A model generated the notes under the pieces. It saw nothing but the letters and a program-made list of their open reading frames with translations. It searched no databases and was not told the DNA's origin. The position numbers were made by a program, and so were the translations under genes. From Nemertoderma westbladi (taxonomy: Eukaryota; Animalia; Xenacoelomorpha), in NCBI GenBank assembly GCA_032718475.1, contig JAUCBJ010007494.1, positions 1 to 64,000 of the forward strand: 64,000 bases of DNA, read 5' to 3'. Each line of letters opens with the position of its first letter. Positions within the stretch are counted from its first letter, which is position 1. Below are positions 912 to 60,320 of the stretch, in pieces.

Positions 912-3900
912 CTACTCCGGACTGATAAAGTTCATCGGGTCAAATAGTCTACTTAATGTCGATAAGCAAATCCTCTTTGTCAAAACTTTGTCTGGGCTAC
1001 TGGGCTCAAATCTAACTCTTACCTGGAACTTATCTGAGTTCGGGTTCCAAGCGAGTCCCAGTACTCGCGCCATGGGGATTGGTTCTACCCCCAATTCTAT
1101 GTCTCCGCTCCCGCGATCTTTCACCGGGAACGATTCTAATAGGGCCTCCGAGTTCGTAGTGAACTTGGTTAGAGGAAATCCCCCTGTAGCCAAGCACTCT
1201 TGCAGGCCGTGAGCCACTTCTATGGCTTGTTCCGCTGTGTCCTTGGACACCAATCCATCGTCCATATAGAAGTTTCTCAAGATGGACTCGATTACTTCTA
1301 CTGGGTACTTACCAATTTGGGCTGTTGCCGTTTTCTTTAAAACGAACAGCGTGCCATTCGGACTATCGCGGGTGCCAAATATCCTTACGTACATTTGGTA
1401 TGTAACCACTGGGCCAGATAAGTCTTCATTCTCGTACCAGAGAAAGCGAAGGCTATCCTGGTCTGCCTTACAGGCTCTTACCTGGTGGAACATCGCCTCG
1501 ATGTCACAAGTAAATGCGAATCGCCGCTGTCTAAAACGCAACAGTATTCCAATCAAATAGTTGTTCAGGTTGGGACCATCCATCAACTCTGAATTCAGGG
1601 ACATACCTCTATAGACTGCTGCGCAGTCGTTGACTACTCGGACATTGTCTGGCTTGTCAGGGTGAGTCACATAGTGGTGTGGAAGGTAATAAGTCTGGTC
1701 TGTCACTAAGTCAGGGTCCTCTACCTTCCCAGCAAATCCCTTGGCGAAATAGTTGTTGATCTGGGCGCAATACTTCTCCCTAATGTCCGGATTCTTCAAC
1801 AACCGAGCCCTTACTCCGTTTAATCTTTTCAAGGCTAAGTTGTAGTTGTTCTCCAACTTAGGTGGTTGTCGACGCCACAACATTCCAACTTCAAAATGTC
1901 CAGTCGGTAGCAGACGTATGGTATCTTCCATCATCTCCAGCGACCGTTTCTCATCAGTAGACATGGCTAGGTCATATCCACCGGGTTCCATTGCGTCCCT
2001 ATCCAGCCATTCGACGGTTCTGGCTCCTGTCTCGAGGTCCTGGTGTATCAATTCCTTCTGTAATTCCTCCTCACTGTATTGGAAAATGTCTAGGTCTCGA
2101 TATTTAGCCACTTGACCCTCCACTATGTCTGTATAAGTCAAAACGTTAGTCAAATAGGTAGCGTGGGCCGCTGAACCAGACCCACGGGTCTGATAACAGT
2201 AGTCCTCGGGTTCACTATCTGTCCGGTCGTTATGAAGTGGTTCCGACAACCTAACATTATCGGGAATCAACTCCTCGTCCGACTCGCTAAAGTCACTATA
2301 GTGGTCAATACAGGTTCTCCTAAACTCGTCTAAGTCTGGTGGTTCTACTAACGGTGGTTGAGTTATAGGCTGTAATTCGTCGTATCTGTCTATTGGCTTG
2401 TCGCCACCTGTAAACTCATAAGACATGGGTACTCGTGTATACCAACCTAGTATGGTCCTATGGGCATGTGGTCCATTGACATGCGGCTCAGCTGGTCTCG
2501 TTTCCCATATCTGGTGTGCGATCAGCTGTTCTGCACCAATCAACATAGAAACATTCCTATAACCTACCTGGTGTCTCGGTATTCTGAGCTTGTCAAAATA
2601 CTCCTGTGCTATGGGACTCATCGGCGGCACCTTACCTAACTGCCTGCCGAATCCCTTCATAGCTAGACACTTAAATCCGTCCAATGACAAAGCTTTCCGT
2701 TCTTGTCGAGTGTGTTGGTCTCTCGGAAGTAGGGAATCTAGTTCTACCGAAATTCTGTGTCCCTTGAGGTCTCCTACCCCATGCATAGACTTCAACTCTA
2801 TTTGGATCTCCTCGGCGTTCTGGAAGCTAGAAACAGCTCTCGCCACTTCCTCGTCGATATACGATAATGTGGACGCAGTGTCCAACATCACATATATTTG
2901 CTTCGATCCCTTATCACCAGTGAGTTTCACCGGAATCACGCTAAATATTTCCGATGTGGCCGATGATAAATACGTCCGCGCGCTGGTCGATGAACTATCC
3001 GCGGTGAAACCTTGGCAGGTCACCTCTCTTGCGCTCAACTCGCCATCCTCGTCCGACGAACCTGGTTGATAACCATCGTCCTGGATGCCGGTGTACGTAT
3101 TCCTCCTTATCGATACGGGTTCTTTGCTCCCCTTCCTGTGAGGATTTCGCTGTAAGTAACGGTCCGTTGGGGTGTGGAAATCCGCATATAGCAACTTGTG
3201 GTGTAGTCTGCCGCATTCCATGCATCCGTCCTTGCTGTTCGGGCACTGCCGCCGTACATGTCCTGGCGCAAGACATGCCCAACAGGTGTCCAACGTCCGC
3301 ACTTGAACTCTTCTCTGTTCCGAATTTAATTCTTTGAACCGTCTGCAACTATCTAACTTATGGTCGTCAGATCTTACCTCCTTTAGTAAACAGTATTGGC
3401 AACCTACAAATCCATCCGGCAACTCCTGTTGCTTTAACCTAGGTCTATCTAACCGCTCACCTGACCATACTCGCGAGTCTGATCTAAAGGCTGGGGTACT
3501 CGAATTATATCTGTCTACTGAGTTAAATGTCACAGTGGTCCTGTCATCGTCAAAACTTACCATAGACTTACCGGTAACAGGCTTAGACTCCCTCATATTC
3601 TCTTCTGAGAAGTTTGATTTCATCTCTGCTACTGCGTCTGTGGCTATCATGTCATGAATATGCTGAAGTGTCAATACTTTACCTTGGCCCTCCAACTTAT
3701 TCTCTAATTTGCGCCATTTCTGTCGGTAACGCATGTTTAGACGTCTTATTACGCTTTTCAAAACTTCGGCGTGATCACCATGATGAGGTAGATTCACCGT
3801 CCTCAAGATGTCCAATGCGTTCGAAATAGCGTTCGCTAAGTTCAACAGCTCTAACGGAGTTGTAATCCTTCCGCCCTTACCCAAGTCTTCTACTATCAAC

Positions 3901-6653
3901 TGCGCCATCTTCGTTTTATTTCCGTAGATGTCGCTAAGCGTCTTCATCGCTAATTCGAATGCCCGTTCATTGCCGACGAAGTTATCAGCAATGGCTCTAG
4001 GTTCTCGATGGAGCATCTGAAGCAAATAGTTGAACTTCTCGTTGGGAGTAAAGGTGCTGTTGGTTAGCTGCTCGTCGACATAGGTTTTAAACGTCCTCCA
4101 GTGCTTGTGGTTGCCCATAAACTTCTGGGGTTGTTGCGTCGGCAGTCCTTGCCTAGCAGCAAACTTACCTATGTCTCTAAGGGTTGCGTCGTTCCGGGTT
4201 AACAAATGGTTTAGTTCCGCAGGGTTGTTAAGTCTGGTCCTTTCCCGGTGGTTCCAACTTACCTGCTCCGCGTCGGTCCTTCTTTCCTTATAGTTTCGGG
4301 ACTTCTGACGTCTCATTTCTTCCTCTTCATCGCTTGACTCAGTGTCAGTCCTTAGCGCTCGCGATGGTTTGCGCGCCGAGGCCCTGACCCAAGCCTCCTC
4401 AATAAATTTTTCCGCCGAATTTTCGAAATAGGGATTATGAATATTCGTGACAGGCGTCCTTACCTGAGGTCTATGTGGTATAGTCTCCTCTGATATGCGT
4501 ACTCGTTGACTAGGCTGGACTTTATCTAACTTAGGCCTGCTGGGATTTGAATTACTTCTTACCTGGGCTGCTTCCTTTAACCGTAGGTTGCTAAGCATGT
4601 CCGTTATAGGTTGGATGTGTGGCGATATAGCTTGCGCTAAACTAGCACTTAACTCATCCCTCGTAATAAATTCCTGGCTAGGGTTCTGTTGTATAGTCGG
4701 CTCTATCTGAGTAATCCACTGTCTCTCATATGATCCCTCTTCCGGTTTAACCCGGAAGTTCTCCGTCGAACTGGGTCGGCGCTCCGTCCACGTATTCCAA
4801 ACCCGCGGGTTCGGTTCGCCAAGTACTCGTCCCGTCGGAGTTTCTCTAAACTCTCCGTTGTCGCGTTCGGTGTATAGTGGTGCGGTGTTCCGATGACGTA
4901 GATCCTGGGCGATGGGTGAAGCACTAATACCAACTGGCGTGCGATATGTAGAGAACGGTTTAGCGATCCGTGTACTCGTAATAGCTGGACCGGGTATAGG
5001 AATTCTGGTCGTCGTCGACTCGCGTATAGTCGGAGTTCTCGCTTCCTGTTCGGCCTTCTGCAGTGCGAACAGTTCTCGCAACTCAGTCCCTACACTCGCC
5101 CCACATTCTTCGATCATTCGCATCCCCTTCTTGGCGATTTCATTCGCCTTCCTAGTCCGTTCTTCGCTCTCTAAACTTAATCTCGCACTTTCCAACTGCG
5201 CCAGTTTACGTTCTTCTTCTTCCCTCGCTCGTCTCGCTGCGCCCTCTTCTTCCACACGCGCCCTTTCTTCATACAACGCTTGTCGCTCTTTCTCGATCTC
5301 GAGTTCGCGTTCCTTGCGTTCGCGTTCAAGTTCGAGTTCGCGTTTCTTCTGTTCGCGTTCGAGCTGGAGTTCGCGTTCTTTGCGTTCGCGTTCGAGCTGG
5401 AGTTCGCGTTCTTTCTGCTCGCGTTCAAGTTCGAGTTCGCGTTCCTTGCGTTCGCGTTCAAGTTGAAGTTCACGTTCCTTCTGCTCGCGTTCCGCTCGCT
5501 CACGCTTACCTTTCTCTTCCAATTCGCGCAACTTCGCGTCTAACTTACGTGTTCGCTCCCGTTCCCGCTCGGCTTCCTTCCGTGCTTCCGATGCACGCAA
5601 AACTTCCGCCTGCTGTTCGTCCAGTCGGCGTCTTCTCTCCTCCGCCGAGTTGTGAGAAACAAGAGATCTAGCACATATAACTTTCCCTCGCGCGTGACTA
5701 ACCTGGGAATCGCCACTGTCTCTGGATGCGTCGTCGGGTGGAGTCAACGTCCTCTGTTGGATGTTCTCCGTCGTCGGTAGCACCTGGCCTGGTACCACCA
5801 CTCCATTCTGCATCAGCCAGCTAGTAACTTCCCTTTGATAACGGCGCTCTTCTTTATCTTGGATCTCTTTTCGCTCCACTAAGTCTCTCAACTCTGCGTC
5901 ACTCACCTGAGTCGCCTGTGCTTGTGATGCCCATAGCAGCCAGTTCTCCGTCCTAACTCGTCGGAATCGCTCCGATAACTCGCGGTGCTCCAACAAGGCT
6001 GCTAAAACCCTGTCGTAAATCCTCGTCGCCATGTCGCTCGACTGAGACTCTACTGCCTTCTTCGCTAGGACTGCAAGCTCCTCCGTCTGCTTGAATAACG
6101 CTGAGTTATATCCTCTTCTAATCTCTACTAACTCTACCCTCCCGATGTTCGCTGAGTCAGCTAACATCTTCCTTACCTTGTCCGCCGTCCGAGTTATATG
6201 TCCGGCATGCGCGCGAAGTTTCTTCTTTATCGCAATGTCTAGTTCTCTCTCGCTTACCTGACTCACACTCGGTGGACTTGAAGGATTATTTCGGGAACTA
6301 CGGGTACTCCTTACAGCCGTTGGGACCACGGCACTTACCATACCCACAGGTCTGGAAACCGGGCTCCGGGCTCTCGCTTCTGCTACACTACCCTCCCTAT
6401 CACTCACCTCTGTCCGGGCTGCCGTACAGTCCTTCCTATCAGTAGCGGTAAGGGATCCTAATACTATTACTTGAGGTTGTTGTTCTTCCTCACTAGTCAC
6501 TGTCTCGTCCTCCTGTTCACTTACGTCAGCGTCGCTCGCTGCGTCGTCATAGTCGGCATTGTCATCAACAGTAATGTTTACGCTATCGTCAGTCGGCGGT
6601 CCAGCCGCCGTCTCATAGCTGTCCTCTAGTGCCTCTTTGTCTGAGACACTCAT
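912..6653 (-). CDS. BEL/Pao gag-protease-reverse transcriptase polyprotein, truncated at the start of the RNase H region
   Basis: Gag capsid-like block (KFMGNHKHWRTF...EKFNYLLQML), three Cys/His knuckles (CQYC..HKLDSC, CWAC..GHVRRQC, CMECGRLHHKLL), aspartic protease LDTAST, Pao-type RT motifs (YYLPHH, RVVNDC, LNSELMDGPNL, DIEAMFHQV, YMDD). Ends at TKRICLSTLSRLFDPMNFISPE*. Confidence 0.93.
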   Translation of the reverse strand: MSVSDKEALEDSYETAAGPPTDDSVNITVDDNADYDDAASDADVSEQEDETVTSEEEQQPQVIVLGSLTATDRKDCTAARTEVSDREGSVAEARARSPVSRPVGMVSAVVPTAVRSTRSSRNNPSSPPSVSQVSERELDIAIKKKLRAHAGHITRTADKVRKMLADSANIGRVELVEIRRGYNSALFKQTEELAVLAKKAVESQSSDMATRIYDRVLAALLEHRELSERFRRVRTENWLLWASQAQATQVSDAELRDLVERKEIQDKEERRYQREVTSWLMQNGVVVPGQVLPTTENIQQRTLTPPDDASRDSGDSQVSHARGKVICARSLVSHNSAEERRRRLDEQQAEVLRASEARKEAERERERTRKLDAKLRELEEKGKRERAEREQKERELQLERERKERELELEREQKERELQLERERKERELQLEREQKKRELELERERKERELEIEKERQALYEERARVEEEGAARRAREEEERKLAQLESARLSLESEERTRKANEIAKKGMRMIEECGASVGTELRELFALQKAEQEARTPTIRESTTTRIPIPGPAITSTRIAKPFSTYRTPVGISASPIAQDLRHRNTAPLYTERDNGEFRETPTGRVLGEPNPRVWNTWTERRPSSTENFRVKPEEGSYERQWITQIEPTIQQNPSQEFITRDELSASLAQAISPHIQPITDMLSNLRLKEAAQVRSNSNPSRPKLDKVQPSQRVRISEETIPHRPQVRTPVTNIHNPYFENSAEKFIEEAWVRASARKPSRALRTDTESSDEEEEMRRQKSRNYKERRTDAEQVSWNHRERTRLNNPAELNHLLTRNDATLRDIGKFAARQGLPTQQPQKFMGNHKHWRTFKTYVDEQLTNSTFTPNEKFNYLLQMLHREPRAIADNFVGNERAFELAMKTLSDIYGNKTKMAQLIVEDLGKGGRITTPLELLNLANAISNALDILRTVNLPHHGDHAEVLKSVIRRLNMRYRQKWRKLENKLEGQGKVLTLQHIHDMIATDAVAEMKSNFSEENMRESKPVTGKSMVSFDDDRTTVTFNSVDRYNSSTPAFRSDSRVWSGERLDRPRLKQQELPDGFVGCQYCLLKEVRSDDHKLDSCRRFKELNSEQRRVQVRTLDTCWACLAPGHVRRQCPNSKDGCMECGRLHHKLLYADFHTPTDRYLQRNPHRKGSKEPVSIRRNTYTGIQDDGYQPGSSDEDGELSAREVTCQGFTADSSSTSARTYLSSATSEIFSVIPVKLTGDKGSKQIYVMLDTASTLSYIDEEVARAVSSFQNAEEIQIELKSMHGVGDLKGHRISVELDSLLPRDQHTRQERKALSLDGFKCLAMKGFGRQLGKVPPMSPIAQEYFDKLRIPRHQVGYRNVSMLIGAEQLIAHQIWETRPAEPHVNGPHAHRTILGWYTRVPMSYEFTGGDKPIDRYDELQPITQPPLVEPPDLDEFRRTCIDHYSDFSESDEELIPDNVRLSEPLHNDRTDSEPEDYCYQTRGSGSAAHATYLTNVLTYTDIVEGQVAKYRDLDIFQYSEEELQKELIHQDLETGARTVEWLDRDAMEPGGYDLAMSTDEKRSLEMMEDTIRLLPTGHFEVGMLWRRQPPKLENNYNLALKRLNGVRARLLKNPDIREKYCAQINNYFAKGFAGKVEDPDLVTDQTYYLPHHYVTHPDKPDNVRVVNDCAAVYRGMSLNSELMDGPNLNNYLIGILLRFRQRRFAFTCDIEAMFHQVRACKADQDSLRFLWYENEDLSGPVVTYQMYVRIFGTRDSPNGTLFVLKKTATAQIGKYPVEVIESILRNFYMDDGLVSKDTAEQAIEVAHGLQECLATGGFPLTKFTTNSEALLESFPVKDRGSGDIELGVEPIPMARVLGLAWNPNSDKFQVRVRFEPSSPDKVLTKRICLSTLSRLFDPMNFISPE
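5295..5492 (-). repeat. 33-bp coding tandem repeat (11-aa ERERKERELEL / EREQKERELQL) in gag
   Basis: GAGTTCGCGT recurs every 33 nt (5301, 5334...), about 6 copies. Confidence 0.9.
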
Positions 6654-7499
6654 AGTCTAAATAATGTTCGCCTTCCGGCAAAATATCTCGCAAAGGTTCG
6701 AGATATAATTATAATTTAACCGAAATACGGTCAAATTATTTGTCTAATATCAGTTGGTCCAAAATGTCAAAATAAATTCGCAATGCAATATTGTGAATTT
6801 AATGGGGTATATAGTTATAGCAAATACTAACACAATATTTAAACAAAAATATTATTATATAGCTACTATATAGCATTAAATACCGGTATAGCACAAAATA
6901 ACTTTGAATCTAATACAAAATATTCAAAATATACTTGCCGCCCGAATATTTCTAATTTTGTATATATATAGCTCTAATTAACGTAATTTTAATTTCAAAT
7001 ATTATATGTATCCACTAGCGCGTGGCTACATCTTCGGGTTGCGACTCTCTCTAACTCTCTCTCTAACTTGAGCGATTCAAAACCATGGCCGGCTAAACCT
7101 AAATATCCTAACTAATAAATTGAGTTCAGCTTCGCAGTTAAACAACCGATAATTTTTTACTGCTTCCACAAACACTATGGTGCCAACAGAACAACTAACC
7201 TTGTTTGCTGTGAGATTCCACGTCCGCGTCCAAAGATTCAGGCCCTTTGCTGATTGCAAACCGAACCCGCAGACCCACACGAACCCCAAACTCAGAAGTT
7301 CCGTCTTGCCATGTATCTCCAGATGGTATAAAATAACTAAGCGGTTACCTAACATACCGGTACAAAACTCTAGAATTTTACAAATAATTTTGACCGAAAC
7401 TGAATTCTCGCAAACCTAGCTAAAATTTTCAAAAAACTTACTAATTACAATTCGCCCTAAGGCCTAAGGAACTGCTGTATTCGCAATTAGCAAAAACGC

Positions 7500-20024: not shown

Positions 20025-20650
20025 TTAACCCTATTGACATATGGTCTGCGTGACTTTTCCTAAAATTTAATGGGCTATCCAACAGCCAAAACGCCATTTA
20101 CATGACTATGCTAGTTTTCGTGCTGTGGTCCCGTGTTCTGGCACCCATCATCAGTTTTTTTCGTGCAAAAATTTTCAAAAATTTTTTGGCTCACTAACTA
20201 ACATCAATTTATTTCCAGTATATAACGGTTTTTAGGAAGCTGATCACGAATCAAATATGACACTGAAATATATCGTATATTGAAGATTAGGGCATTTTAG
20301 TATTTGTGTCAATATGCGCACCAAAAATACAATTGAAGCACACATTTGATAATCAAAAATCATAACCAAATCAACCTGATTGTTAGATATTATGGGTTAA
20401 CTGGTACGCTGATAACGAATATGACACCCAAAAATATCGTATTATCCATCAAAATTCTATATTTGCAAAATTTAAGAGTTTATAATTTTGTGCTAGGCCT
20501 ACTTGTACTTTTTGTTCTGGGGCACAAGAATGGCACCAAAAATGGATCTGCATTACCGGAAATATTTATAACTATCGTCATCGTGATCAGCGACCTCAAA
20601 AACCCTTATACCATCAAAATTGTAATTTCTCGGAGTCGGATTGATTTAAA
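20025..20650. mobile_element. MITE-like fragment; related inverted fragment at ~56050-56120
   Basis: TTAACCCTATT start. TAGTTTTCGTGCTGTGGTCCC...TGGCACCCAT...TTTTTCGTGC is mirrored at ~56050-56120. Confidence 0.4.
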
Positions 20651-20652
20651 GT

Positions 20653-20957
20653 CGGATTGGGCTGAGGCTGGTGGAAGGGTGGAGCTGCAGCCACAGTGGG
20701 TGGTATAGGGAGGAGCAATTGGATTGGGCTGAGTCTGGTGGGAGGGTGGAGCTGGAGCCACAGCGGGTGGCATAGGGAGGAGCAGTTGGATTGGGCTGAG
20801 GCTTGTGGAAGGGTGGAGCTGGAGCGACAGCGGGAGGTATAGGGAGGAGCAGTTGGATTGGGCTGAGGCTGGTGGATAGGTGGAGCTGGAGCCACAGCGG
20901 GTGGTATAGGGAGGAGCAGTTGGATTGGGCTGAGGCTAGTGGAATGGTGGAGCAGCT
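20653..20957. repeat. Left remnant of the 67-bp G-rich satellite (about 4.5 units)
   Basis: Same unit as 38555-47095; fused directly to gag sequence of element A. Confidence 0.95.
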
Positions 20958-24988: not shown

Positions 24989-26217
24989 TGTAAAAGCTTT
25001 TACTGAATTGTCCGGTTATTTTTCCTTATTTTTCCCGTAAAGTACTCTGTAGTTGGTTTACCAGGCATAAAAAGGCCGTGTCCTTGCTGTACTGGTGTTT
25101 TAGCGGACATAAGAGCTATTTCTTCTGTATTTGTACTTTAGAGGACATAATCCGTAATTCCGTGACGTAAAAGCACGATACTCTTGAAAACAGTGTCGCT
25201 ACCATGACGACGGCTAGCAGCTGATATTGCCACGTTGACGTTTCTTTGTTTCTCTGTTCTCTCGTTGTTCAGGTTGACCAATCAGAGCGTTTGTTATCTC
25301 TGTGTTGGAGGTATATACAGAAACTCAGTAGTTCAGTGTTATTGTTTTTGTCCAGAGCCTAAGAACCGGCTTTGGCACCTCCGTGTTTTAGTTTTTAGTC
25401 TTACACTAGTAGGTTTAATTATAAAGGGCATATATCCTTTAACGCACCTACCTGACTCATGGAATCACTGCATACTGATGACTGATGTCTGCATACTGCA
25501 GTACTGCATACACTGCATACTGTGTAACATTGTGCATACCTTTATATTGTTATACTGCTATTTACCGTCAGTTCTTCATAATATGGTTGATGAATAATTA
25601 TATTTGGAATAACGATAAACAACCCCGAAACCCAATGTTCTTGATATACCGAAGGTAAGAGAGAAGGGTTACAGATAAACGATTGTGACTTATGTTAAAG
25701 TGGTTTGAAGTGAATCTAATGTTATTTGATAGACCCTACATGAGCCAGTCTGTGTTCCTTATATATGTGACTAAAATCAGTGAAGATCGGCAGATTAGTG
25801 TGCAGTATTGTGCAGCATTGTGTATGAGTGAGTCTGTTAAAGAAGCATTCCTAAAGAATGCGCCATATATGTGAATTATAATTAAGCCATATCGTTGTGA
25901 GTGGTTTAAGTCATAACTCTGTTTATATAGATAAAGCGCCACGTCCTAAAGGAACTGTTAATATTCCCGAAGGTGAATAATATTGTCAGAGATTATATAA
26001 TACTGTCAGTCGAATAATACATTAGGCTTACATAGCAATAAAATTAAACCGTCGAACCCAATCTCCCGGGAATTTCCAGCGGGTGAATGGTCGCGCACGG
26101 ATTGGTTTCGACTAGTGTAGTGAATCAAATACTTGTCATAGACTAAAAACTGATTTAATATCTAGAAGACATCTTAATTTGGTGGGTTAAACTGCCAAAG
26201 GTCTGAAAGCGCGAACA
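24989..26217 (+). repeat. 5' LTR of element B
   Basis: TGTAAAAGCTTTT...GAAAGCGCGAACA; direct repeat of 35509-36737. Confidence 0.97.
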
Positions 26218-26479
26218 TTAAAGGATATAGCTTCTTTATTGCAGTAAGCAATAAAGTCGAAAGTACCGGTCGACCGGTAACCAGTAGGCCTGACTGCCTG
26301 ATCATCCGGACCGGTACCTACAGCAGTATTATTCGATTTTGATTGTTATATACCAGTAGGTCTTAATAATTAATCGGGGACGCCTGGTTTTTATTGAGAT
26401 TTTACTTATTTCTGTCAAGTTTTATTTATTTGTAAGCCAGTATTGAACAGAAGGCGTGTAAGCCTGATCAGATTGTACA

Positions 26480-27045
26480 GACAATTTGTAGGCTGAGCTG
26501 TTGTCTGATTGCTGTTAAGTCCGAACGAATTGCAGTGTGTGTAGAGCACTTGTCCGATTAAGTACGGTTAGGAAGTAGGGGCAGCAACGCTGTAAGGTAA
26601 TCCCCCAGATAAAGAATAAGTCGCACTACTGGGTTAGAGCGCATACTCCCTAATCATTTCGGAGTCTGCATGTCCTGTAGTTTATTTAGGCTTGAGAGTA
26701 GTCTGCCATCGTTTAGTCTGTACTTTGTTTGTGTAAGTCTGTACGGGTAGCGTATAATTTTATTTAGATAATTTGTAGGCTGGATAGTTGTCTGGCTGTT
26801 ATTAGGTCTGAACGGATTGCTGCGTGTGTAGATCATCTGTCCGATTAAGTACGATTAGGCAGTAGGGGCAGTGAACACTGTAAGGTAAACCCCCAACTAA
26901 AGAATAAGTCGCACTACTGGGTTAGAGCGCATACTCCCTAATCATTTCGGAGTCTGCATATACCGTAGTTTGTTTAGGCTTGATAGTAGTCTGTCAGTGT
27001 TCGGTCTGTATTTTGTTTGAGTAGTTTGTACGCGTAGCGTAATAT
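26480..27045 (+). repeat. ~288-bp tandem duplication in the leader of B (also in C at ~58420-58985)
   Basis: AAGAATAAGTCGCACTACTGGGTTAGAGCGCATACTCCCTAATCATTTCGGAGTCTGCAT at ~26612 and ~26900. Confidence 0.9.
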
Positions 27046-28361
27046 TTATTATTCAGAGTTTATGCGATTATTCGCAACATTCAAGTCCCCAAGTTTGTTC
27101 CTACAGTAATTGTGTTTGTTATACATACCGCTATAGTTAAATTAACCTCGGTACTACACGGGCTGCTCGGCGTAGGTAAAGACTGGTGATTTTGTGCATC
27201 GGTCACTCCAGCAGATGCCGTGGTTCTTTTAGCTGTTCAAGTATATTTAATTACTGATTAACTGTTGTGCAAGTACTCGTACCTAATTTAGGGTTTAGTG
27301 TACAGTGCTTTCCGAGAAGTAATTATTGTAGACATTATATTTGTGTTGTAAAGTGGTTGATAGGCACATTCGATTAGCTCTATTAACTTCTAGGTAGGAA
27401 CACTCCGTGATACATAACGTAGAACCTATAGCGATACGGCTATAGGTCGTCAGGCGGTGGCATTTTCCTATCTAGACAACGCAGTGTATTTACTACTACT
27501 TATTATTTCAAATACCGTAGTACCCTGTCCGCTGTAATAACCGGTTTTCTAACCCTTTGTTAGGCTGGTTTGTAGAATTCTTGTAAAATTACCCTAAAAA
27601 TTCGTATTTTGCGTTTTTGTAAAATTTTGTGTTTATTTAGAGATTGTAATCTCACCCGAATTGTACGTAATTTGTAGTATTAAGTAACTTAGGTAAATTA
27701 GAATTATTTGTTTTAGTGTCTCATAAGTAACACTTCACTGAAAGCGCACCGCTTTGTGTAGTGATTACCCCCAGAAATAATAACATTTATTTCAAACATT
27801 GACAAAACCCATTAAAACGGGTATATATATATTATAAATCAAATCTAACGATTTATAAATCGTAGGCCTACAATACAAACATTAGGTCTCAATATAAGTT
27901 GGACTACTGCTCAAATAACGGTAATAAAGTAAGTAAGTAACCAAGTAACCCTAAAGTTCAGAAATTCAGTTATTTTAAAATAATTGATATACCGGTATTT
28001 ACGATAGGCCTATTATCTTTATTCCTATAAATCTAGGCTGAAATTATACCGGTACGTGTAATTAATTCTATTTCAGAATTATATATCCTACAGACTGTAA
28101 GCTGTATACCGGTATTCCAGATAGGCCTATTATATATTTATATATATTTGTGCTAAAATTATACCGGTATTCGGTGATAAACCTAGTCTGTAATAATAGT
28201 TATATATACTATAAGCATACCGGTATTCTAATATATTATATATATCACGCTACACTGAGTAGCAGTACCGGTGATTAATTACTAGGCTAGCAGTTAATAC
28301 TGAGTTACTAGACTTGCTCAGACTGTAATACGGCAGTAGACATTCAACTGTACACATAAGC

Positions 28362-31300
28362 ATGTCTGACGCAAAGCAGAACCTGTCAGACAGTCTACTA
28401 GATACAACCGAGAGTGAAGTGACAGCAGAGAAACCGCATAAGAGGGATGCCATTGACATCTATCTGTCAGACTATCAGCGTTTTTTGGGAGATGAAGAGT
28501 TGAGGAGAAGGCTAGAGGGACTTAGCCCTAATAGCGAAGGAGCCAAACTCGTGTTAGATGCGATTGATGTGGATAGGTTAGCGGCGAACCAAGCTAAATT
28601 CGATGAACAACTCCGCATCGCTAGAGAACAAGAAGAACAAGTAAAGAAAAAACGTATAGAAGACAGAAAGATAGCAGCAGTGGCAGAGGCGGAAAGAAAA
28701 GCGACCTTGGCAGAAGCAGCGGCAGAGGCAAAAGCGGCAGCAGCAGAAGCAGAGGCAAAGGCAACAAAAGCAGCAGCAGAAGCAAAGGCAGAGGCAAAAG
28801 CGGCAGCGGCAGAGGTAAAAGCGGCAGCGGTGGCGGAAGCAGAACGGAGAGCATCTGAAGAGGCAACCCAACTAGAGTTGGAAAATCTTCAAGAGAGGCA
28901 AGACAACTTCAATAAACAGTTAACAGCTAGTAATATGCAGATGATGAGTCGATCTACTCCCAAAAGACAGGGATATACATCATCGGAGGAAGGCGATACC
29001 ACCGATACTGAAGGCAAAGGAAATAGATCTCGTCTAAGCAGACGTAAAAGAACATTCCACCGTCAGAAATTGCCTGATTTGCCTCCAGCTGTTAGAAGGC
29101 AACTAAATAACACCAACTTAGGTAGTACAGAGCCCACAGACCAAATAATTAAAATAGAAAGACTCCCTACTATAGTGGATGAGCCTGAAATAAGTAGGCC
29201 TGTTCTTGAAATCACCCCTACGGTAATAGATACATCTGTGCTCCCTGAAGCTACCTATAAATTCCCTCTACATAGCACTAAGCTACCTGTGCCCCGTAGG
29301 ACTGCCCGAGAGACAGTTCAGGTCCTGGACCCCGAGCGAAATATTCCGAATTTGTCGCCCGTTGTCCCTTGTCTGCCCGCTACGACGTTGGCGGATCCCG
29401 TTTCGGCGGTTGATTGGGTAGACGAGAGACGGCGGGGGATGGATATTCTCCTCGGAGAGATGAAGGAGAATCGGATACGCTCCTCCCAACAGGTCCGAGA
29501 GTTGGAAGGGACTGTCCAACATTTAAAGGGAACAGTGAGGGAAAGCAAGTTGGAGTTGCAAGAAGTGCAGCAAAATATCGCGCTAGAGCGCGATAAATTA
29601 GTAAGTTTACAAAAGGGTATACCACCACCCTCTGTAACAATGTGTCAACCTGTTAGGTCTGAAGTATTGCATGCGCAAGGTGTGGAGCCTACACGCATAT
29701 ATACTGCTAGCGAAGTAGAAACTCCTATAGTGAACCCTATTAAGGGTAATTATAGACCTGTTGATAATGATATTCCCTATAGAACTGATCATAATCCGAG
29801 AAATTTATATACCGATAACTCGATATTAAATAGCACGATGGCCCAAGAAAGTTTTACGCGTCAAATGGCTAGAACCGAAGCCCGGCAAGCGGTAAAGGTT
29901 GGAGAGATTGTCAAGTTCAATGGAGATGAGATGAAATGGTTACCTTTTAATGAATATTACAAAGATAACATACAGAACTCTGTACTATCTAATGGAGAGA
30001 AACTTAGATTCCTCATCGAATGTTTGGAAGGACCTCCCAAGTCAATGGCGTTAAAATTTATTGGACATCCAGATGGATTAAGACAAGTTTGGGATACACT
30101 AAACATCAGGTATGGTAATAGGAATGACATAGCTGGGTATTTGTATGCAAAATTAATGGCGCCCCGAAAGTTTCTTAGCAGCGGGATTATAGAGTTTTCC
30201 GATGAGATTCAGGAGATCTGTAGACAATTAGATTGGCTAGGTAAGTCTCATGAATACCAGAATTCTATGGTTGTAAGAGCCTTAGCATCTGCTTTGCCCA
30301 AGGGTGGAGTAGGTACACGCTGGGATAAGAAGGTGTTATATATGATGGAACAACAACGACGAGACCCTACCATGACTGATCTCATGTCATTCTTAGATAG
30401 AGAAGTGAAATTACAGCTCCTAAGGCAGTCCAGAGAGAAGACATTGGAAAACAAGGTAAGTGAGAAACCCGTTTCTAGGAGAAGGGTAACACCAGTATGT
30501 TATACCGACGACGGTGAAAGCCAAACCTCTCAAGGAGAGGACAGCGGGAAAGACACTGACAGACCTTATTATGTCAATAAAATGCCTAAAGAACAGGTAA
30601 GTAAATCCAAGTCTCGACCCAATGACAGAAGGGAACCGATACAAAAAACCCCTCCTACGTCTCCTAAAGGAATTCAGGTGAGAAAGCCCGAGGAAAGAAC
30701 AAGTGTGCACCACATAGCACAGGTTAAAGTAAGTAACATCAAGCCGAAATGTGTGCTGTGCGACGGGCCCCACCGTTTAAATGCGTGTGATAAATTCCTG
30801 AGGAAATCACTCGAGGATAGACGTGAAGTCATGTGGGATAAGCGGTTGTGTTATAATTGCCTCAGACGAGGACACCAACGGCGAACCTGTAACTCCGACG
30901 CAAGGTGTGCAAAGTGCGGCGCAAAACATCATATCTTGTTGCACACGGAATTCGAACGAAACAGCCCGAGTCAGGTAAGTGAGTCCGAACTACATGTCCA
31001 ATTCAGTGATGTGAACGACACTGATCAATCTGAGATGGAAGGATTCTATACGGACGAGTTCTCCGACCAAAACGAATCCTGTTACCTAATAAACACCACC
31101 GCAGTGTATCGAGCACTCGTGTATGAGAAAGACACAGACGGCGACCTTACCTTAACTACTTCCGATCAACAACCATCTTGGAAAGCGCCAACTTCCAATA
31201 TAGGGATCCGAGAGTTTCCTGTGGTGCAGGTAAGGGTGCACGGACCTAAACGGAGTTATGTAGTGAACGCCCTCCTGGACTCCGGCAGCACAGGAACATT

Positions 31301-32492
31301 CATCGATAAAGAGCTAGCCGAAGATATATTTGCTGGACAGCCCAAGTTCCAAACTAAGCTCAACATGTCTGGCATTATGCAAGTTTGGAAATCTACAATA
31401 ACAGCTGCTGATTATTATGTAGGCGCGTTGTCCACCCCACAAGACGAACTAGGAGAACACAGCATAAGGTCAGTGAAAATGGTGGCTATAAAGAACTTCG
31501 CTACTACTCAAGCAGACCTTTATAATTGGGATGAGGATGAGAGCATACAACATCTTAACATACCTCGATTCCAGACTGATTATCCTGGAGTGCAAATACT
31601 CATCGGCCAAAACGCGCATGAGGCGCTGGAGACATTAGAGAAACGACCTGCTCAACCGCAGCCACTACAGACCTATGCGGTAAGAACTAGAGTAGGTTGG
31701 TACCTTACTGGACCTTCCCGTAGAACGCTCAGGGAAAGACTGCTTCAAGATCGTGTCTGCCAGGTGAGTGAATGGGAAGACGATACTAGTGAGGGAGACG
31801 ACCCAACTGAGGGAACACCACACTCCTCAGATAATGACAATCTTAGCTCCAATGTAGATCAATGGAGATATTGCCCCAAGAAGTTTAATCCAACGGACAT
31901 CGCTTCCAGAGGAGCAACTCCTCAAGAACTGACAGATACTATAGACCGGTTAGGTGAACCCGACTTCCTGAGTAAGGAGAATGAATGGCCTCCCCATCTT
32001 ACTCCGACTGAGATTAGACCAGCCAAGGGAGCGGAGAAAGTCGAACCTGAAACCCGGACGGGTGGATCGGAGTTATTTGAACCCGGGATAGATCTGTCGG
32101 TATTACATGTTGCCAGGGACGACGCCGTGGATCTGGGCCTCCCCTCCGCGAGTGGATCCTTCATGAAGATCAGAGAGAGCGATTGGAGCTCTGGAACATC
32201 AGACGTCTCGCAGGGACTCTCACCTCTCCTGCAGAGAGCGACGGACCACTATAGCTCCTGGAATCGGCTTTGTGACGCCGTCATATACTTTGAGCGATGT
32301 TTCTATCGTCACTATTCCAGGACGAAGAGGAAACCTGGAATTGTATTCAGGATGCAGCGACTCAATCACCCAGTCGGTCGTTTGTGTTTATCGGAAGGGA
32401 ATGGAGGACTCTCCGGAAACTGTGGAAGACAAGATTCTCTTCCCACGACCACCTCCCTAATCCTTCAAACATCTAGGGACTCCATAACGTAA
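28362..32492 (+). CDS. BEL/Pao gag-protease polyprotein lacking RT and integrase (1376 aa)
   Basis: Ala/Glu/Lys repeat, capsid-like KFNGDEMKW..EKLRFLIECL, three Cys/His knuckles, LLDSGSTGTFI protease, then a jump to the RNase H end (QWRYCPKKFNPTDIASRG) and SSWNRL linker; no YxDD or DDE motifs. Confidence 0.92.
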   Translation: MSDAKQNLSDSLLDTTESEVTAEKPHKRDAIDIYLSDYQRFLGDEELRRRLEGLSPNSEGAKLVLDAIDVDRLAANQAKFDEQLRIAREQEEQVKKKRIEDRKIAAVAEAERKATLAEAAAEAKAAAAEAEAKATKAAAEAKAEAKAAAAEVKAAAVAEAERRASEEATQLELENLQERQDNFNKQLTASNMQMMSRSTPKRQGYTSSEEGDTTDTEGKGNRSRLSRRKRTFHRQKLPDLPPAVRRQLNNTNLGSTEPTDQIIKIERLPTIVDEPEISRPVLEITPTVIDTSVLPEATYKFPLHSTKLPVPRRTARETVQVLDPERNIPNLSPVVPCLPATTLADPVSAVDWVDERRRGMDILLGEMKENRIRSSQQVRELEGTVQHLKGTVRESKLELQEVQQNIALERDKLVSLQKGIPPPSVTMCQPVRSEVLHAQGVEPTRIYTASEVETPIVNPIKGNYRPVDNDIPYRTDHNPRNLYTDNSILNSTMAQESFTRQMARTEARQAVKVGEIVKFNGDEMKWLPFNEYYKDNIQNSVLSNGEKLRFLIECLEGPPKSMALKFIGHPDGLRQVWDTLNIRYGNRNDIAGYLYAKLMAPRKFLSSGIIEFSDEIQEICRQLDWLGKSHEYQNSMVVRALASALPKGGVGTRWDKKVLYMMEQQRRDPTMTDLMSFLDREVKLQLLRQSREKTLENKVSEKPVSRRRVTPVCYTDDGESQTSQGEDSGKDTDRPYYVNKMPKEQVSKSKSRPNDRREPIQKTPPTSPKGIQVRKPEERTSVHHIAQVKVSNIKPKCVLCDGPHRLNACDKFLRKSLEDRREVMWDKRLCYNCLRRGHQRRTCNSDARCAKCGAKHHILLHTEFERNSPSQVSESELHVQFSDVNDTDQSEMEGFYTDEFSDQNESCYLINTTAVYRALVYEKDTDGDLTLTTSDQQPSWKAPTSNIGIREFPVVQVRVHGPKRSYVVNALLDSGSTGTFIDKELAEDIFAGQPKFQTKLNMSGIMQVWKSTITAADYYVGALSTPQDELGEHSIRSVKMVAIKNFATTQADLYNWDEDESIQHLNIPRFQTDYPGVQILIGQNAHEALETLEKRPAQPQPLQTYAVRTRVGWYLTGPSRRTLRERLLQDRVCQVSEWEDDTSEGDDPTEGTPHSSDNDNLSSNVDQWRYCPKKFNPTDIASRGATPQELTDTIDRLGEPDFLSKENEWPPHLTPTEIRPAKGAEKVEPETRTGGSELFEPGIDLSVLHVARDDAVDLGLPSASGSFMKIRESDWSSGTSDVSQGLSPLLQRATDHYSSWNRLCDAVIYFERCFYRHYSRTKRKPGIVFRMQRLNHPVGRLCLSEGNGGLSGNCGRQDSLPTTTSLILQTSRDSIT

Positions 32493-34147: not shown

Positions 34148-35508
34148 TGACGGAGTTGATGGAAGATGTTCTTGGTATCGGGGAGCGATATACTCTACTT
34201 TTGCAAGCGTTTGTTGATAGCTTAATACGCGGCGACGTTAGTCCAACTGCTGCGGAGGACGATGGTCGTTATATCGAACCGCCAATGTCCCAAGAGCAGC
34301 TCACGCGTGAGTTGGACTATAGAAAATTCGCTGCTCGATATACGCGGCGTAATGGTATGTATATGGGCTTCTTAACTACTGGTCATCCTATCGATTTACA
34401 CAATACGGACTATGTCGACTATATATCCTGCCCAGCGGAGTCGGAACCATAAACGGAAATTCGAATGCGAAAATTCTATTCGAAATCGACTCGAAAGAAA
34501 AGACACTTAAGAAACAAATGGACGCGGTAACTCCAAAGTATATTTGGAATTCTTGATAGAAGCATTGTAACAACAAATAAATGTCACCCGCGTTTACCCT
34601 ACCAGACGTGCGTCTTTGGTATTATTACGATAAAAGCCCTAGACCCAAATAATAAACGGAAAGACATAAACATCCATGTAAACCGAAACTTGTTGACGTA
34701 TCACCTATGCTCACTCGGCTCGAACGATCCTGGAGTAAACCTACGATCAGAGTCCCGGAATACTCGGTCAAACCTCCTCATTCCTTAGTTGGACCTCAGA
34801 CTTGCGATCCTGGTGGTGTCGCGGATCCTCGCGGACGGTATTCACTGTTCAAGATCTAGTGCTACCCTAACAATTAATCGGTAACACTCCGACAGTGATT
34901 TCTAGCTAGCCGCCCATCTTACCTAGCTGGATTATGACGCAGACACCTAATATCATTATCCAATCGTATGGTCGTCCCGTTTAACGCGATACAACCCTTC
35001 ATCAAGGTGAAGGAGAGCATTGTACGAAACGAGTTAAACGCTATTCTATAAAGATCAAAAAGGAAACCTGCGTTTGTTCAGATAAACGTAAGTTATAACA
35101 GTAAGTCCAATCGATAAACGAATTGGCCTTATCTCAATTCGATTGGGAAATCCAGAATCTCTAAGAAGTTATCGAACTTGGACGATCCTATTCTCTGCGA
35201 GAGTTTTTGGATGAACGTATCCAGCTACGAGCGGAGGAAAATCAGCTCGAGGAGAAGCATATCGAAACGGCAGATACCCCGACCACAATCCTACACCTTC
35301 TGATGCAATCATATTGCACCCTTCACCCAGGAGTTATGGCCCTCCTAGTAAAGTGGCTCCCCCCAAAGAGAAAAAGACTCTTGCTAGCCTCAAAAAACTG
35401 CGTAAACGCCGTCTGCGTAAGAAAGACTAACTGTTTAGAGTATCTTTATGTTTTAGAAACTGTGATTTTTATATTTTATAGACTGAAAATCCCATTTTCT
35501 GGGAGCGG
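34148..35508 (+). pseudogene. Element B ORF2, degenerate (deletions and stops)
   Basis: MTELMEDVLGIGERYTL...QEQLTRELDYRKF and ...LHPGVMALLVKWL...ASKNCVNAV are homologous to ORF2 of A. Confidence 0.7.
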
Positions 35509-36737
35509 TGTAAAAGCTTTTACTGAATTGTCCGGTTATTTTTCCTTATTTTTCCCGTAAAGTACTCTGTAGTTGGTTTACCAGGCATAAAAAGGCCGTG
35601 TCCTTGCTGTACTGGTGTTTTAGCGGACATAAGAGCTATTTCTTCTGTATTTGTACTTTAGAGGACATAATCCGTAATTCCGTGACGTAAAAGCACGATA
35701 CTCTTGAAAACAGTGTCGCTACCATGACGACGGCTAGCAGCTGATATTGCCACGTCGACGTTTCTTTGTTTCTCTGTTCTCTCGTTGTTCAGGTTGACCA
35801 ATCAGAGCGTTTGTTATCTCTGTGTTGGAGGTATATACAGAAACTCAGTAGTTCAGTGTTATTGTTTTTGTCCAGAGCCTAAGAACCGGCTTTGGCACCT
35901 CCGTGTTTTAGTTTTTAGTCTTACACTAGTAGGTTTAATTATAAAGGGCATATATCCTTTAACGCACCTACCTGACTCATGGAATCACTGCATACTGATG
36001 ACTGATGTCTGCATACTGCAGTACTGCATACACTGCATACTGTGTAACATTGTGCATACCTTTATATTGTTATACTGCTATTTACCGTCAGTTCTTCATA
36101 ATATGGTTGATGAATAATTATATTTGGAATAACGATAAACAACCCCGAAACCCAATGTTCTTGATATACCGAAGGTAAGAGAGAAGGGTTACAGATAAAC
36201 GATTGTGACTTATGTTAAAGTGGTTTGAAGTGAATCTAATGTTATTTGATAGACCCTACATGAGCCAGTCTGTGTTCCTTATATATGTGACTAAAATCAG
36301 TGAAGATCGGCAGATTAGTGTGCAGTATTGTGCAGCATTGTGTATGAGTGAGTCTGTTAAAGAAGCATTCCTAAAGAATGCGCCATATATGTGAATTATA
36401 ATTAAGCCATATCGTTGTGAGTGGTTTAAGTCATAACTCTGTTTATATAGATAAAGCGCCACGTCCTAAAGGAACTGTTAATATTCCCGAAGGTGAATAA
36501 TATTGTCAGAGATTATATAATACTGTCAGTCGAATAATACATTAGGCTTACATAGCAATAAAATTAAACCGTCGAACCCAATCTCCCGGGAATTTCCAGC
36601 GGGTGAATGGTCGCGCACGGATTGGTTTCGACTAGTGTAGTGAATCAAATACTTGTCATAGACTAAAAACTGATTTAATATCTAGAAGACATCTTAATTT
36701 GGTGGGTTAAACTGCCAAAGGTCTGAAAGCGCGAACA
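35509..36737 (+). repeat. 3' LTR of element B
   Basis: Matches the 5' LTR; I spotted one substitution (CACGTTGACG vs CACGTCGACG). Confidence 0.97.
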
Positions 36738-37366: not shown

Positions 37367-38554
37367 TGTAAAAGCTTTTGCGGGATGTAACTGGCCCTTT
37401 TTCTCCGCAATCCAGTTTTCCCTCAATGCGCTCAAATACTCTAAAACTGCCTGGCTTGAGTGACGCAGTCTGCTGGCTGATTGGCTGATTTGCTGTGCGT
37501 GTATGGCCTCTTTGTTCTGTTCGATCAACCAATCAGAACAATGATCGACCAATCAGAGCGATTTCGCCTTGTGTTGGCTGTGGGCTGCAAAGGCTAGGGT
37601 GGTTTGGCATTTAGACATTCGTGGAACCTGTGGAATATGGAGCTCCGCCAATGAGAGCTATTTCTCTTTGTGTTGAAAGATACCTACAACAGCCCACAGG
37701 GATCAGTGTGTTGGTTTTCCAGATGCCTGAACATCGGCTATGGAATAATTATGTGTTTCAGACTTTAGCCAAACATTAGAACGGCTTTGATTACCGGAAC
37801 GTATAACTGTTATCAAACCAATGCATGACTCGCATACCTGGCATATCAGACTCAGTATATGCCTTTCACCACATTATTTTACTGCTATTTACTGTCGGTT
37901 GTTAATTGTATCTGTTGATGGAATATTGTTATATTTGGATAATATCGATAAATAATCATAAAACCCCATCTTCTTGATATACTGAAGGTAAGAGACCGGT
38001 TACATATAGCAATTGCGACTTATATGATATTGGTTTTGGAGTGAATCTAATGCTATTTCATAGGCACTACATGGGTCAATTGCTGTTCTCTTTATATGTG
38101 ACTAAAATTAGTGAAGGTCGGCATATCAGTGTGCAGTATTATGCGGTACCGGTAGTGTGCATGATTGTGACAGATAACTAAGCATCTCCTAAAGAATGCG
38201 CCTTATACGTAAATCAATAGCCATCCCGTTGTGTTTAGTGTAAGTCATAGGTCTATTTATATATTTAGAGCGCCACGTCCAAAAGGAACTGTTAATATCT
38301 CCCGAAAGTGAATAATATTTGTCAGAGATTATATATTAACGATCAATCGAATAATACAGTAGGCCTACACCACAATAAGGTCAGAGCCCCCGAATCCAGT
38401 CTCCCGGGTATATCCAACGGGTGAATGGTCGCGCATAGGCTGGCTTCGGCTAATGTAGTGTATCAAATACTCGTCATAGGCTAAAGTCGATTTATAATCT
38501 AGAAGACACCTAAATTAGGCGGGTTAAACTGCCTAAGGTCTAAAAGCGCGAACA
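37367..38554 (+). repeat. 3' LTR of element A (diverged subfamily)
   Basis: GGGAGCGG|TGTAAAAGCTTTT...AAAGCGCGAACA; 3' two-thirds alignable to the B LTR. Confidence 0.92.
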
Positions 38555-56898: not shown

Positions 56899-58122
56899 TG
56901 TAAAAGCTTTTGTGGGATAACTGATTCGTTTGCCTTGTTGGCCAGTTCCCCCCCAGTCGCTAAGAATACTCTCAAAGTGATCTATAGTTAAAATAGTGTA
57001 AGCTACCAGCTTATTGGCTGATTTGTGGGATGCAGGTATCTGGGCTCTGTTAATCGTCCAACTAGCCTAAGAGGGTTGCGTCATAGCCTGTTTTTGTATC
57101 TTCCAATAGAAATTTGAGTTATCCTGGATTTTAACCAATCCTGAGCTACTGAACTGAAAATTCCTATCTCACTGCTCATCCTCTGTGTTGAACGGGAGCT
57201 TTGGGGAATAAGTGTAGTTGGTATTCTCGTAGTCACGAGTTTTTTAAAGCCACGAAAGAACGGCTTATAGTGTTTTGTGCTTTTCTGCTTTTTAGTTTAA
57301 CACTAGCAGGTTTAATTATAAGGACATATATCCTTTAACTGGCAAAACAAACTGCATATCATATCAAACTGCGGACTGCATACCTAACGCACGGCATACT
57401 ACTGACTGCTGAAACATTGCAAACTCATAACAATCAGTGTTCAGTTGTTGTTTTATACTGCTATTTACTGTCGGTTATTCATTATATTTGTGGATGAATT
57501 ATTATATTTGGAATAACGAGAAACAACCCCGAAACCCAATATTCTTGATATACCGAAGGTAAGAGAGAAAGGTTACAGATAAACGATTGTGACTTATGTT
57601 AAAGTGGTTTGAAGTGAATTTAATGTTATTTGATAGACCCTACATGAGTCAGCCTGTGTTCCTTTTATATGTGACTAAAATCAGTGAAGATCGGCAGATT
57701 AGTGTGCAGTATTGTGCAGCATTGTGTATGCGTGAGTCTGTTAAAGAAGCATTTCCTAAAGAATGCGCCATATATGTTAATTATAACTAAACCATATCGT
57801 TGTGAGTAGTTTAAGTCATAACTCTGTTTATATAGATAGAGCGCCACGTCCTAAAGGAACTGTTAATATTCCCGAAGGTAAATAATATTGTCAGAGATTA
57901 TATAATACTGTCAGTCGAATAATACATTAGGCTTACATAGCAATAAAATTAAACCGTCGAACCCAATCTCCCGGGAATATCCAGCGGGTGAATGGTCGCG
58001 CACGGATTGGTTTCGACTAGTGTAGTGAATCAAATATTTGTCGTAGGCAGAAAAGCGATTTAATATCTAGAAGACATCATAATTTGGTGGGTTAAACTGC
58101 CAAAGGTCTGAAAGCGCGAACA
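56899..58122 (+). repeat. 5' LTR of element C (1224 bp)
   Basis: TGTAAAAGCTTTT...GAAAGCGCGAACA followed by TTAAAGGATATAG as in B. Confidence 0.93.
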
Positions 58123-60320
58123 TTAAAGGATATAGCTTCTTTATTGCAGTAAGCAATAAAGTTGAAAGTACCGGTCAACCGGTAAACCTGAACGGTACAT
58201 TGTAGGTCTGTAGGCCTAACTGTCATAACCGGTACCGGTACTGCTGTATAAGTACATTTAGTATTATTCGATTTTGATTGTTGTATACCTGTAGGTCTTA
58301 GTACTTAATCAGGGAACGGCCGCCCTGGTTTTTTATTGAGATTTTACTTATTTCTGTCAAGTTTTATTTGTTTGTAGGCCAGTATTGAACAGAAGACGTG
58401 TAAGCCTGATCAGATTGTGCAGACAATTTGTAGGCTGAGCTGTTGTCTGATTGCTGTTAGGTCTGAACGGATTGCAGTGTGTGTAGAGCAACTGTCCGGT
58501 TAAGTACGGTTAGGAAGTAGGGGCAGCGAATGCGGTAAGGTAAACCCCCAGCTAAAGAATAAGTCGTACTACTGGGTTAGAACGCATACTACCTAATCAT
58601 TCCGGAGTCTGCATGTCCTGTAGTTTATTTAGGCTTGAGAGTAGTCTACCATCGTTTAGTCTGTACTTTGTTTGTGTAAGTCTGTACGGGTAGCGTATAA
58701 TTTTATTTAGATAATTTGTAGGCTGGATAATTGTCTGGCTGTTATCGGGTCTGAACGGATTGTAGTGTGTGTAGAGCACCTGTCCGATTGAGTACGGTTA
58801 GGAAGTAGGGGCAGCGAACGCTGTAAGGTAAACCCCCAGCTAAAGAATAAGTCGTACTACTGGGTTAGAACGCATACTGCCTAATCATTTCGGAGTCTGC
58901 ATATACCGTAGTTTGTTTAGGCTTGATAGTAGTCTGTCGGTATTTGGTCTGCATTTTGTTTGAGTAGTTTGTACGCGTAGCGTAATATTTATTATTCAGA
59001 GTTTATGCGATTATTCGCAACCTTCACATTCCCCAACTTTGTTCCTACAGTAATTGTGTTTGTTATACATACCGCTATAGTTAAATTAACCCCGGTACTA
59101 CACGGGCTGCTCGGCGTAGGTAAAGACTGGTGATTTTGTGCATCGGTCACTCCAGCAGATGCCGTGGTTCTTTTAGCTGTTCAAGTATATTTAACTACTG
59201 ATTATCTGTTATACAAGTACTCGTACCTAATTTAGGGTTTAGTGTACAGTAGGCCTACTTTCCGAAGTAATTAGTGTAGGCATTATATTTGTGTTGTAAA
59301 GTGGTTGATAGGCACCTTCGATTAGCTCTATTAACTTCTAGGTAGGAACACTCCGTGATACATAACGTAGAACCTATAGCGATACGGCCATAGGTCGTCA
59401 GGCGGTGGTATTTTCCTATCTGGACAACGCAGTGTATTTACTACTACTTATTATTTTCAAATACTGTAGTACCCTGTCTGTTGTAATAACCAGATTTCTA
59501 ACCCTTTGTTAGGCTGGTTTGTAGACTTCTTGTAAAATTACCCTAAAAATTCGTATTTTGTGTTTTTTGTAAATTTTTGCATTTATTTAGAGATTGTAAT
59601 CTCACCCGAATTGTACGTAATTTGTAGTATTAAGTAACTTAGGTAAATTAGTATTATTTGTTTTAGTGTCCTGTACGTAACACTTCACTGAAAGCGTACC
59701 GCTTTGTGTAGTGATTACCCCAGAAATAATAACATTTGTTTCAAAGATTGACAAAACCCATTAAAACGGGTATATATATATTATAAATCAAATCTAACGA
59801 TTTATAAATAGTAGGCCTACCATATAACAATTAGGTCTCAATATCAGTTGGATTACTGCTCAAATAACGGTAATAAAGTAAGTAAAGTAACAAAGTAACC
59901 CTAAAGTAACAGAAATTCAATTATTTGAAATAATTGATATACCGGTATTTACGATAGGCCTATTATCTTTATTTCTATAAATCTAGGCTGAAATTATACC
60001 GGTACTTGTAATTAATTCTATTTCAGAATTATATATCCTACAAACTGTAAGCTGTATACCGGTATTCCGATAGGCCTATTATATATTTATATATATTTGT
60101 GCTAAAATTATACCGGTATTCTGTGATAAACCTAGTCTGTAATAATACTTATATAGTTATATATACTATAAGTATACCGGTATTCTAATATATTATATAT
60201 ATATAACGCTACACTGAGTAGCAGTACCGGTAATTAATTACTAGGCTAGCAGTTAATACTGAGTTACTAGACTTACTCAGACTGTAATACAGCAGTAGAC
60301 ATTCAACGGTATACATAGTC

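Follow-up and report, generated by a model that had tools for sequence, protein, structure and literature searches.

Self-priming has been described for the LTR retrotransposons Tf1 and Tf2 of Schizosaccharomyces pombe, for Tj1 and for the Tf1/sushi group, and has been predicted for Tcn1 and for the copia TAR elements (accessible portions of PMC6317226, PMC4600332, PMC10085805 and PMC5341516). In Tf1/Tf2, Tj1, the Tf1/sushi group and Tcn1, the site that follows the terminal CA of the LTR is complementary to a short segment of the LTR itself (accessible portions of PMC4600332, PMC10085805 and PMC5341516), and Tf1 requires a pretzel structure (accessible portion of PMC10085805). Outside Tf1/sushi, self-priming has been predicted from sequence in the plant Ty1/copia TAR lineage, comprising Houba and Osr-1 (accessible portion of PMC6317226). 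BEL/Pao elements are described differently. The ICTV profile of the Belpaoviridae lists a primer site of 18 nt, matching tRNA-Arg or tRNA-Gly, and presents replication as tRNA-primed and poorly understood (PMC8742986), and Achilles carries a tRNA-Tyr site (accessible portion of PMC4580426).

The initial annotation of the locus studied here held that self-priming was not known to be described for BEL/Pao elements, and no description was found by title or abstract start in the openly accessible literature; an earlier remark may exist in subscription journals, supplements, Repbase or GyDB. None appears in the accessible portions of PMC3601003, PMC6934838, PMC13524379, PMC5445492 and PMC3391268, and the terms PBS and tRNA are absent from the main text of the BEL/Pao surveys PMC3118150, PMC554778 and PMC6238403. 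It is plausible that the elements reported below use a mechanism of a known type in a superfamily for which we found no description of it.

Element B is a recently inserted BEL/Pao derivative

The window, a stretch of 64,000 nucleotides of Nemertoderma westbladi DNA, contains the element B (24989-36737, plus strand), which was delimited by self-comparison of the window and by its junctions, together with two relatives, A and C, and a more distant one, D. The 5' LTR of B (24989..26217, plus strand; TG...CA, 1229 bp) and its 3' LTR (35509..36737, plus strand) differ by a single mismatch in 1229 bp, and their limits are set by the LTR pair and by a 5-bp target-site duplication, CAATT, in the flanks of the element (24984-24988, with its partner at 36738-36742). 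Since the ends of B are intact, the LTRs near-identical and the duplication present, the element was recently made by reverse transcriptase (RT) and integrase. Reverse transcription of LTR elements needs priming beside the 5' LTR; thus, some primer must act next to position 26217.

The ORF of B (28329..32492, plus strand) encodes a DUF1759 capsid-type domain, three zinc knuckles, a protease (LLDSGS) and an RNase H tail, which, together with the 1.2-kb TG...CA LTRs, resembles the organization of the Belpaoviridae. PF03564 was found in B, C and D; moreover, 33 of the 35 homologues of the B gag-protease carry PF03564, and the remaining two carry PF05380. The identity between the B gag-protease and BEL/Pao polyproteins was 21-26% in alignments covering at least 44% of the query. 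B therefore shows the DUF1759-type gag, zinc knuckles, Pao-type protease, TG...CA LTRs and target-site duplication of BEL/Pao elements; its proteins are of the BEL/Pao type, and the gypsy-type pol with a chromodomain integrase that characterizes Tf1/sushi elements is not among them. The complete set of RT, RNase H and integrase expected of a BEL/Pao element was not found in B. RT and integrase are absent from both A and B, each of which encodes a gag-protease with an RNase H tail, and the region 32500-35500 of B was matched by none of 154 homologous polyproteins, whose RT part matches only D (in the three of the 154 matches listed). As B lacks RT and integrase, we infer that it is a non-autonomous BEL/Pao derivative that would need both enzymes in trans. 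An autonomous partner for B was not found; D is the only RT-encoding relative in the window. The B family is abundant in public sequencing runs, part of B being present in 7 of the 12 runs listed, which come from four studies.

In A and B (20958-24988 and 28329-35508, respectively) the protease leads directly to the RNase H tail, which is separated from the 3' LTR by some 3 kb of other sequence. This stretch holds a 295-residue frame in A (24102-24986), within an ORF that has no Pfam match, and a short frame that closes with a basic run immediately ahead of the polypurine tract (PPT). The initial annotation had placed a PPT abutting the TG of the LTR. A candidate tract at 35501..35508 (plus strand) does adjoin the 3' LTR of B, as claimed; as a PPT it is a modest one, namely an 8-nt G-rich run interrupted by one C.

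The site following the LTR is complementary to the LTR itself

Directly after the terminal CA of the 5' LTR, the primer-binding position of B (26218..26229, plus strand) reads TTAAAGGATATA, and that of C (58123..58134, plus strand) is identical. The reverse complement of this 12-mer, the candidate self-primer TATATCCTTTAA, lies inside the B 5' LTR at 25431..25442 (plus strand), with further copies at 35951-35962 in the 3' LTR of B and at 57327-57338 in the LTR of C. Both observations, the 12-mer adjoining the terminal CA without a spacer and its exact reverse complement inside the element's own LTR, had been made in the initial annotation and were recovered for B and C at exactly the same coordinates. 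Its report that no TGG-type tRNA primer-binding site follows these LTRs also holds: the first TGG after the LTR occurs only at offset 167 in B and 203 in C, so that the 3' end of a mature tRNA is excluded as the primer. Thus, unlike the elements of the Belpaoviridae profile (PMC8742986) and Achilles (accessible portion of PMC4580426), B and C lack a tRNA site, the site of about 18 nt for a host tRNA 3' end being found in neither, and B additionally lacks RT and integrase.

The complementarity is perfect over 12 of 12 positions at offset 0, as in elements of the Tf1 type, where the site adjoining the LTR pairs perfectly with an LTR segment. Among 5000 dinucleotide-shuffled versions of the LTR, none gave a 12-nt complement at offset 0 and one did so at offsets 0-5. 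Within B, it was reached at 2 of 9261 start positions, one of which is the primer-binding site itself, and among the positions preceded by CA it is the only such 12-mer in either element (1/157 in B and 1/143 in C). These results confirm that the complementarity between the LTR and the post-LTR site is a real, above-chance feature. Since B shares its 12-mer with C at each of the two places, the two elements count as one observation and not as covariation.

We consider that B and C probably prime themselves, with the LTR 12-mer replacing a tRNA and with RT supplied in trans; this is the best reading of the sequence. In the mechanism that we propose, transcription would start at about 25430-25432, and the first 11-13 nt of the RNA would fold back to pair with 26218-26229, spanning an R-U5 region of approximately 790 nt. 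An autonomous relative would provide an RT in trans, whose RNase H would then cut after 25442, and the 3' end of the primer would be extended from the terminal CA to begin minus-strand DNA synthesis. Each round would copy the primer-binding site anew from the primer, and changes in the LTR site would thereby pass into it.

The comparison with known systems shows both likeness and difference. Unlike the Tf1 groups, which are Ty3/gypsy chromoviruses, B and C have BEL/Pao proteins, and their primer and site lie about 790 nt apart; furthermore, unlike in Tf1, a pretzel is not common to B and C, B is devoid of RT and the start site of B is a predicted one. The plant Ty1/copia TAR lineage belongs to another superfamily and another kingdom, and the evidence for its self-priming is of the same level as that for B and C (accessible portion of PMC6317226). 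Fungal GalEa copia elements and bivalve TRIMs combine, as here, the lack of a tRNA site with a hairpin just inside the 5' LTR (accessible portions of PMC5445492 and PMC6934838); in GalEa an LTR complement was not found, whereas B and C have an exact one (accessible portion of PMC5445492). The self-priming reading of the initial annotation is supported in part, namely by the BEL/Pao-type proteins, the missing mature-tRNA site, a complement far above chance where priming has to occur, and variation of the LTR site with a hint of corresponding change in the post-LTR site. That the 12-mer would form the 5' end of the RNA and be cleaved is a prediction, and a Tf1-like three-duplex structure is not common to B and C.

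A broader proposal, which we put forward tentatively and with slightly less than even confidence, is that part of BEL/Pao dropped tRNA priming in favor of a primer taken from its own RNA, with a non-pretzel structure and a leader of about 790 nt, in this case with RT and integrase provided in trans and with the primer and site of each subfamily drifting together, independently of any host tRNA. If true, self-priming, which has been proven only in fission-yeast gypsy elements, would reach a third superfamily, here in an animal host, and would be present in all three LTR-retrotransposon superfamilies. It could also explain BEL/Pao elements in which annotation finds no primer site, and such elements might be freed from control exerted through host tRNAs or tRNA fragments.

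One metagenome match and three prokaryote-genome matches to the LTR-end pattern were attributed to chance, as they share only the 20-nt pattern with B. The pattern gave no viral matches, and when 32 aligned BEL/Pao polyproteins were used to scan viral contigs, none of 100 pattern matches was confirmed.

Variation of the LTR and post-LTR sites

The 3' LTR of A (37367..38554, plus strand) carries a variant site, TATAACTGTTAT, at 37802-37813, which aligns with the B 12-mer as the initial annotation had proposed. Three alleles of the LTR site were distinguished: that of B and C, that of A, with four changes, and a third, found in single contigs of the runs X4 and X5, which has the A letters at positions 8 and 12. 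No variants were seen in either B 12-mer among the 40 of 93 variants listed for contigs on B, nor in the A site among the 40 of 150 listed for contigs on the A LTR. The run X7 contributed no contigs.

Contigs placed on the A LTR provided one variant of the post-LTR site among the 24 of 345 loose ends listed. It is represented by two disagreeing X5 contigs (agreement 0.85), to which their own LTR sites are not linked. Its sequence resembles the B leader, from which it departs at three of the 12 positions (1, 6 and 9). The letters at positions 1 and 6 are those that pair with positions 12 and 7 of the A LTR site; position 9 pairs with no LTR allele seen, and positions 5 and 8 keep the B letter. 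The next 18 letters listed after this 12-mer are nearly unchanged. Compared with the predicted A-type post-LTR site, ATAACAGTTATA, the X5 variant has the A-type letter at two of four diagnostic positions, plus one unexplained change. The probability that at least two of three random changes would fit A is approximately 0.03, calculated by hand with transition bias ignored. We take the two X5 contigs as a hint of covariation.

Element D (912..6664, minus strand) is a distant BEL/Pao relative with a gag-protease-RT ORF (912-6656), whose RT is 41-42% identical to those of elements from coral, sea urchin and tunicate. The ORF is preceded by a similar LTR-end motif and by a non-TGG 12-mer (6664-6653) directly before gag. 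No self-complement of this 12-mer was found upstream, at most six contiguous nucleotides being complementary, and when alternative LTR ends were considered, none of 172 CA sites reached a 12-nt complement. The D ORF ends at 912, still within RT, and the window holds no 3' LTR of D. Given that the LTR limits of D are putative and the copy is truncated, D weakens self-priming and does not refute it.

D and the X5 variant bear in opposite ways on an alternative that we judge unlikely, in which a host small RNA (an anticodon-loop tRNA half, a pre-tRNA trailer or another) would prime at 26218 and the LTR complement would be coincidental or secondary. Half-tRNA priming has been described for several copia lineages, including FunCo1 (accessible portions of PMC6317226 and PMC5445492), and the non-TGG junction of D, with no self-complement, is what a host-RNA-primed lineage might show. 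Nevertheless, under this alternative the 12-nt match at offset 0 would have to be fortuitous (0/5000), and the post-LTR 12-mer varies in X5, where a fixed host primer should resist change. By eye, moreover, the B site agrees with the half-tRNA-Lys site of FunCo1 at only 6 of 11 letters, the terminal A included (accessible portion of PMC5445492).

D may have a 3.4-kb LTR (6664-10101, minus strand), with the gag ATG about 10 nt past the LTR end. A primer formed across a splice junction was also considered for D and rejected, since the best candidate, of 10 nt (offset 1, GC donor), is at chance level, 69 of 658 pseudo-sites giving at least 10 nt; no such primer was found for B or C. A splice-donor-like AGGTAAG (25653..25659, plus strand) is kept in A, B and C.

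A conserved island contains the LTR 12-mer

LTRs with different upstream U3 sequences share an island of about 50 nt (25392..25443, plus strand) that ends 1 nt past the 12-mer. In the alignment of B with C, 23 of 25 columns match over 25419-25443 and 20 of 23 in the preceding block (25396-25443 overall), compared with no more than 13 of 25 in all blocks of 25012-25395 and 10-12 per block in 25444-25508. Conservation thus stops with the 12-mer and both flanks of the island have diverged, bearing out the earlier remark that the 12-mer is kept in C despite the divergence of the neighboring U3. Contigs with other U3 types (loose ends in runs X4, X5 and X6) join at 25392, 39 nt upstream of the 12-mer. 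Judged from sequence, the island edge and the U3 joins are as expected near a U3/R border.

In X4 and X6, the summed contig depth is lower past about 25600, by a factor ranging from several-fold to over tenfold (25370-25620 compared with 25620-26290), and in X6 one exact contig (25414-25579) has a depth of 1379, with near-exact U5 contigs at 13-36. This drop could mark the R/U5 border if the runs are RNA, or could reflect a high-copy truncated derivative.

Sequence motifs point both ways on the start site. A pyrimidine-purine step at 25429-25432 and the island edge fit a start at the 12-mer. The TATAAA hexamer of B (25420..25425, plus strand), if it is a TATA box, would presumably, at the usual spacing, place the start near 25450, past the 12-mer. 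The latter position would suit a self-priming of a non-Tf1 kind, in which the primer would be the U3 copy close to the RNA's 3' end, released by an internal cut and acting in cis or on a dimer partner. We regard this as the least likely of the alternatives: the hexamer reads TATAAG in C and is absent at the equivalent place in A, a cut in U3 would probably deprive that molecule of the R copy on which strand transfer depends, and no precedent was found in the literature searched.

Predicted RNA structure around the primer-binding position

Of 32 foldings, 8 had the duplex between the LTR 12-mer and the post-LTR site in their minimum-energy structure and 24 did not. The duplex was kept in all eight foldings that began at -10 or +1 and ended no more than 102 nt past the site, and it was lost in every folding with at least 180 nt of leader or with the 5' end at least 20 nt upstream. 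We treat these predictions as neutral with respect to self-priming. A clean folding switch set by the start site was considered and dropped, the effect being gone with longer leaders. The three-duplex pretzel of the Tf1 type was not recovered, a predicted extension amounting to 3 bp in B and none in C.

The U5 end is predicted to form stems (26091..26214, plus strand), with 26091-26102 pairing with 26201-26214 and a hairpin at 26178-26199; the counterparts are located at 57996-58119 in C and 38429-38551 in A. All differences between A and B in these stems preserve pairing, and for 19 pairs, hand-picked from the 52 of the prediction, pairing holds in all 57 cells across A, B and C, which include two double and four single changes; the covariation, based on three sequences, is not significant (57/500 shuffles). 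Between the predicted stems and the primer site, just the final three letters of the LTR are unpaired. A 9-bp hairpin, the same in C, is predicted just past the primer-binding position (26234..26256, plus strand).

This predicted structuring of the U5 end and leader would suit another explanation, which we find doubtful and a little less likely than priming by a host small RNA. Here, the duplex would be structural, serving packaging, dimerization, a translation switch or, through the copy at 35951, circularization of the 5' and 3' ends, and something else would act as the primer. The pairing continues upstream into and through the TATAAA region, to about 21 bp, exceeding what a primer needs, and a predicted local hairpin (25417-25436) could compete for the 12-mer. 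A purely structural duplex would, however, occupy the sole place for primer binding, and this explanation names no primer.

Surroundings of the elements

Element A is a 5'-truncated relative that retains its 3' half with the 3' LTR, and it is interrupted by the nested B. It sits in a 67-bp satellite (20650-20953 and 38555-47097), with 128 copies on the right side. Element C is located about 18 kb beyond A. Its 5' LTR (56899..58122, plus strand), the start of which is deduced from the shared terminus, contains the 12-mer described above, and its gag ORF (60288..64000, plus strand) runs off the window, so that C leaves the window before the place where RT and integrase would lie.

The U3 regions of A, B and C (37367-37780, 24989-25391 and 56899-57288, respectively) are barely alignable behind the common TGTAAAAGCTTTT start, and further U3 types occur in public runs, a picture of modular U3 exchange on a common R-U5. 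The leaders of B and C contain a 288-bp tandem duplication (26478-27057 and 58420-59000). Rfam and ARAGORN gave no matches within the 64-kb window. Finally, the window also contains the ORF of a non-LTR retrotransposon (14557-17493, minus strand; 978 residues, with endonuclease and RT) and two near-perfect palindromes, of 94 bp (12103-12196) and about 194 bp (52012-52205).
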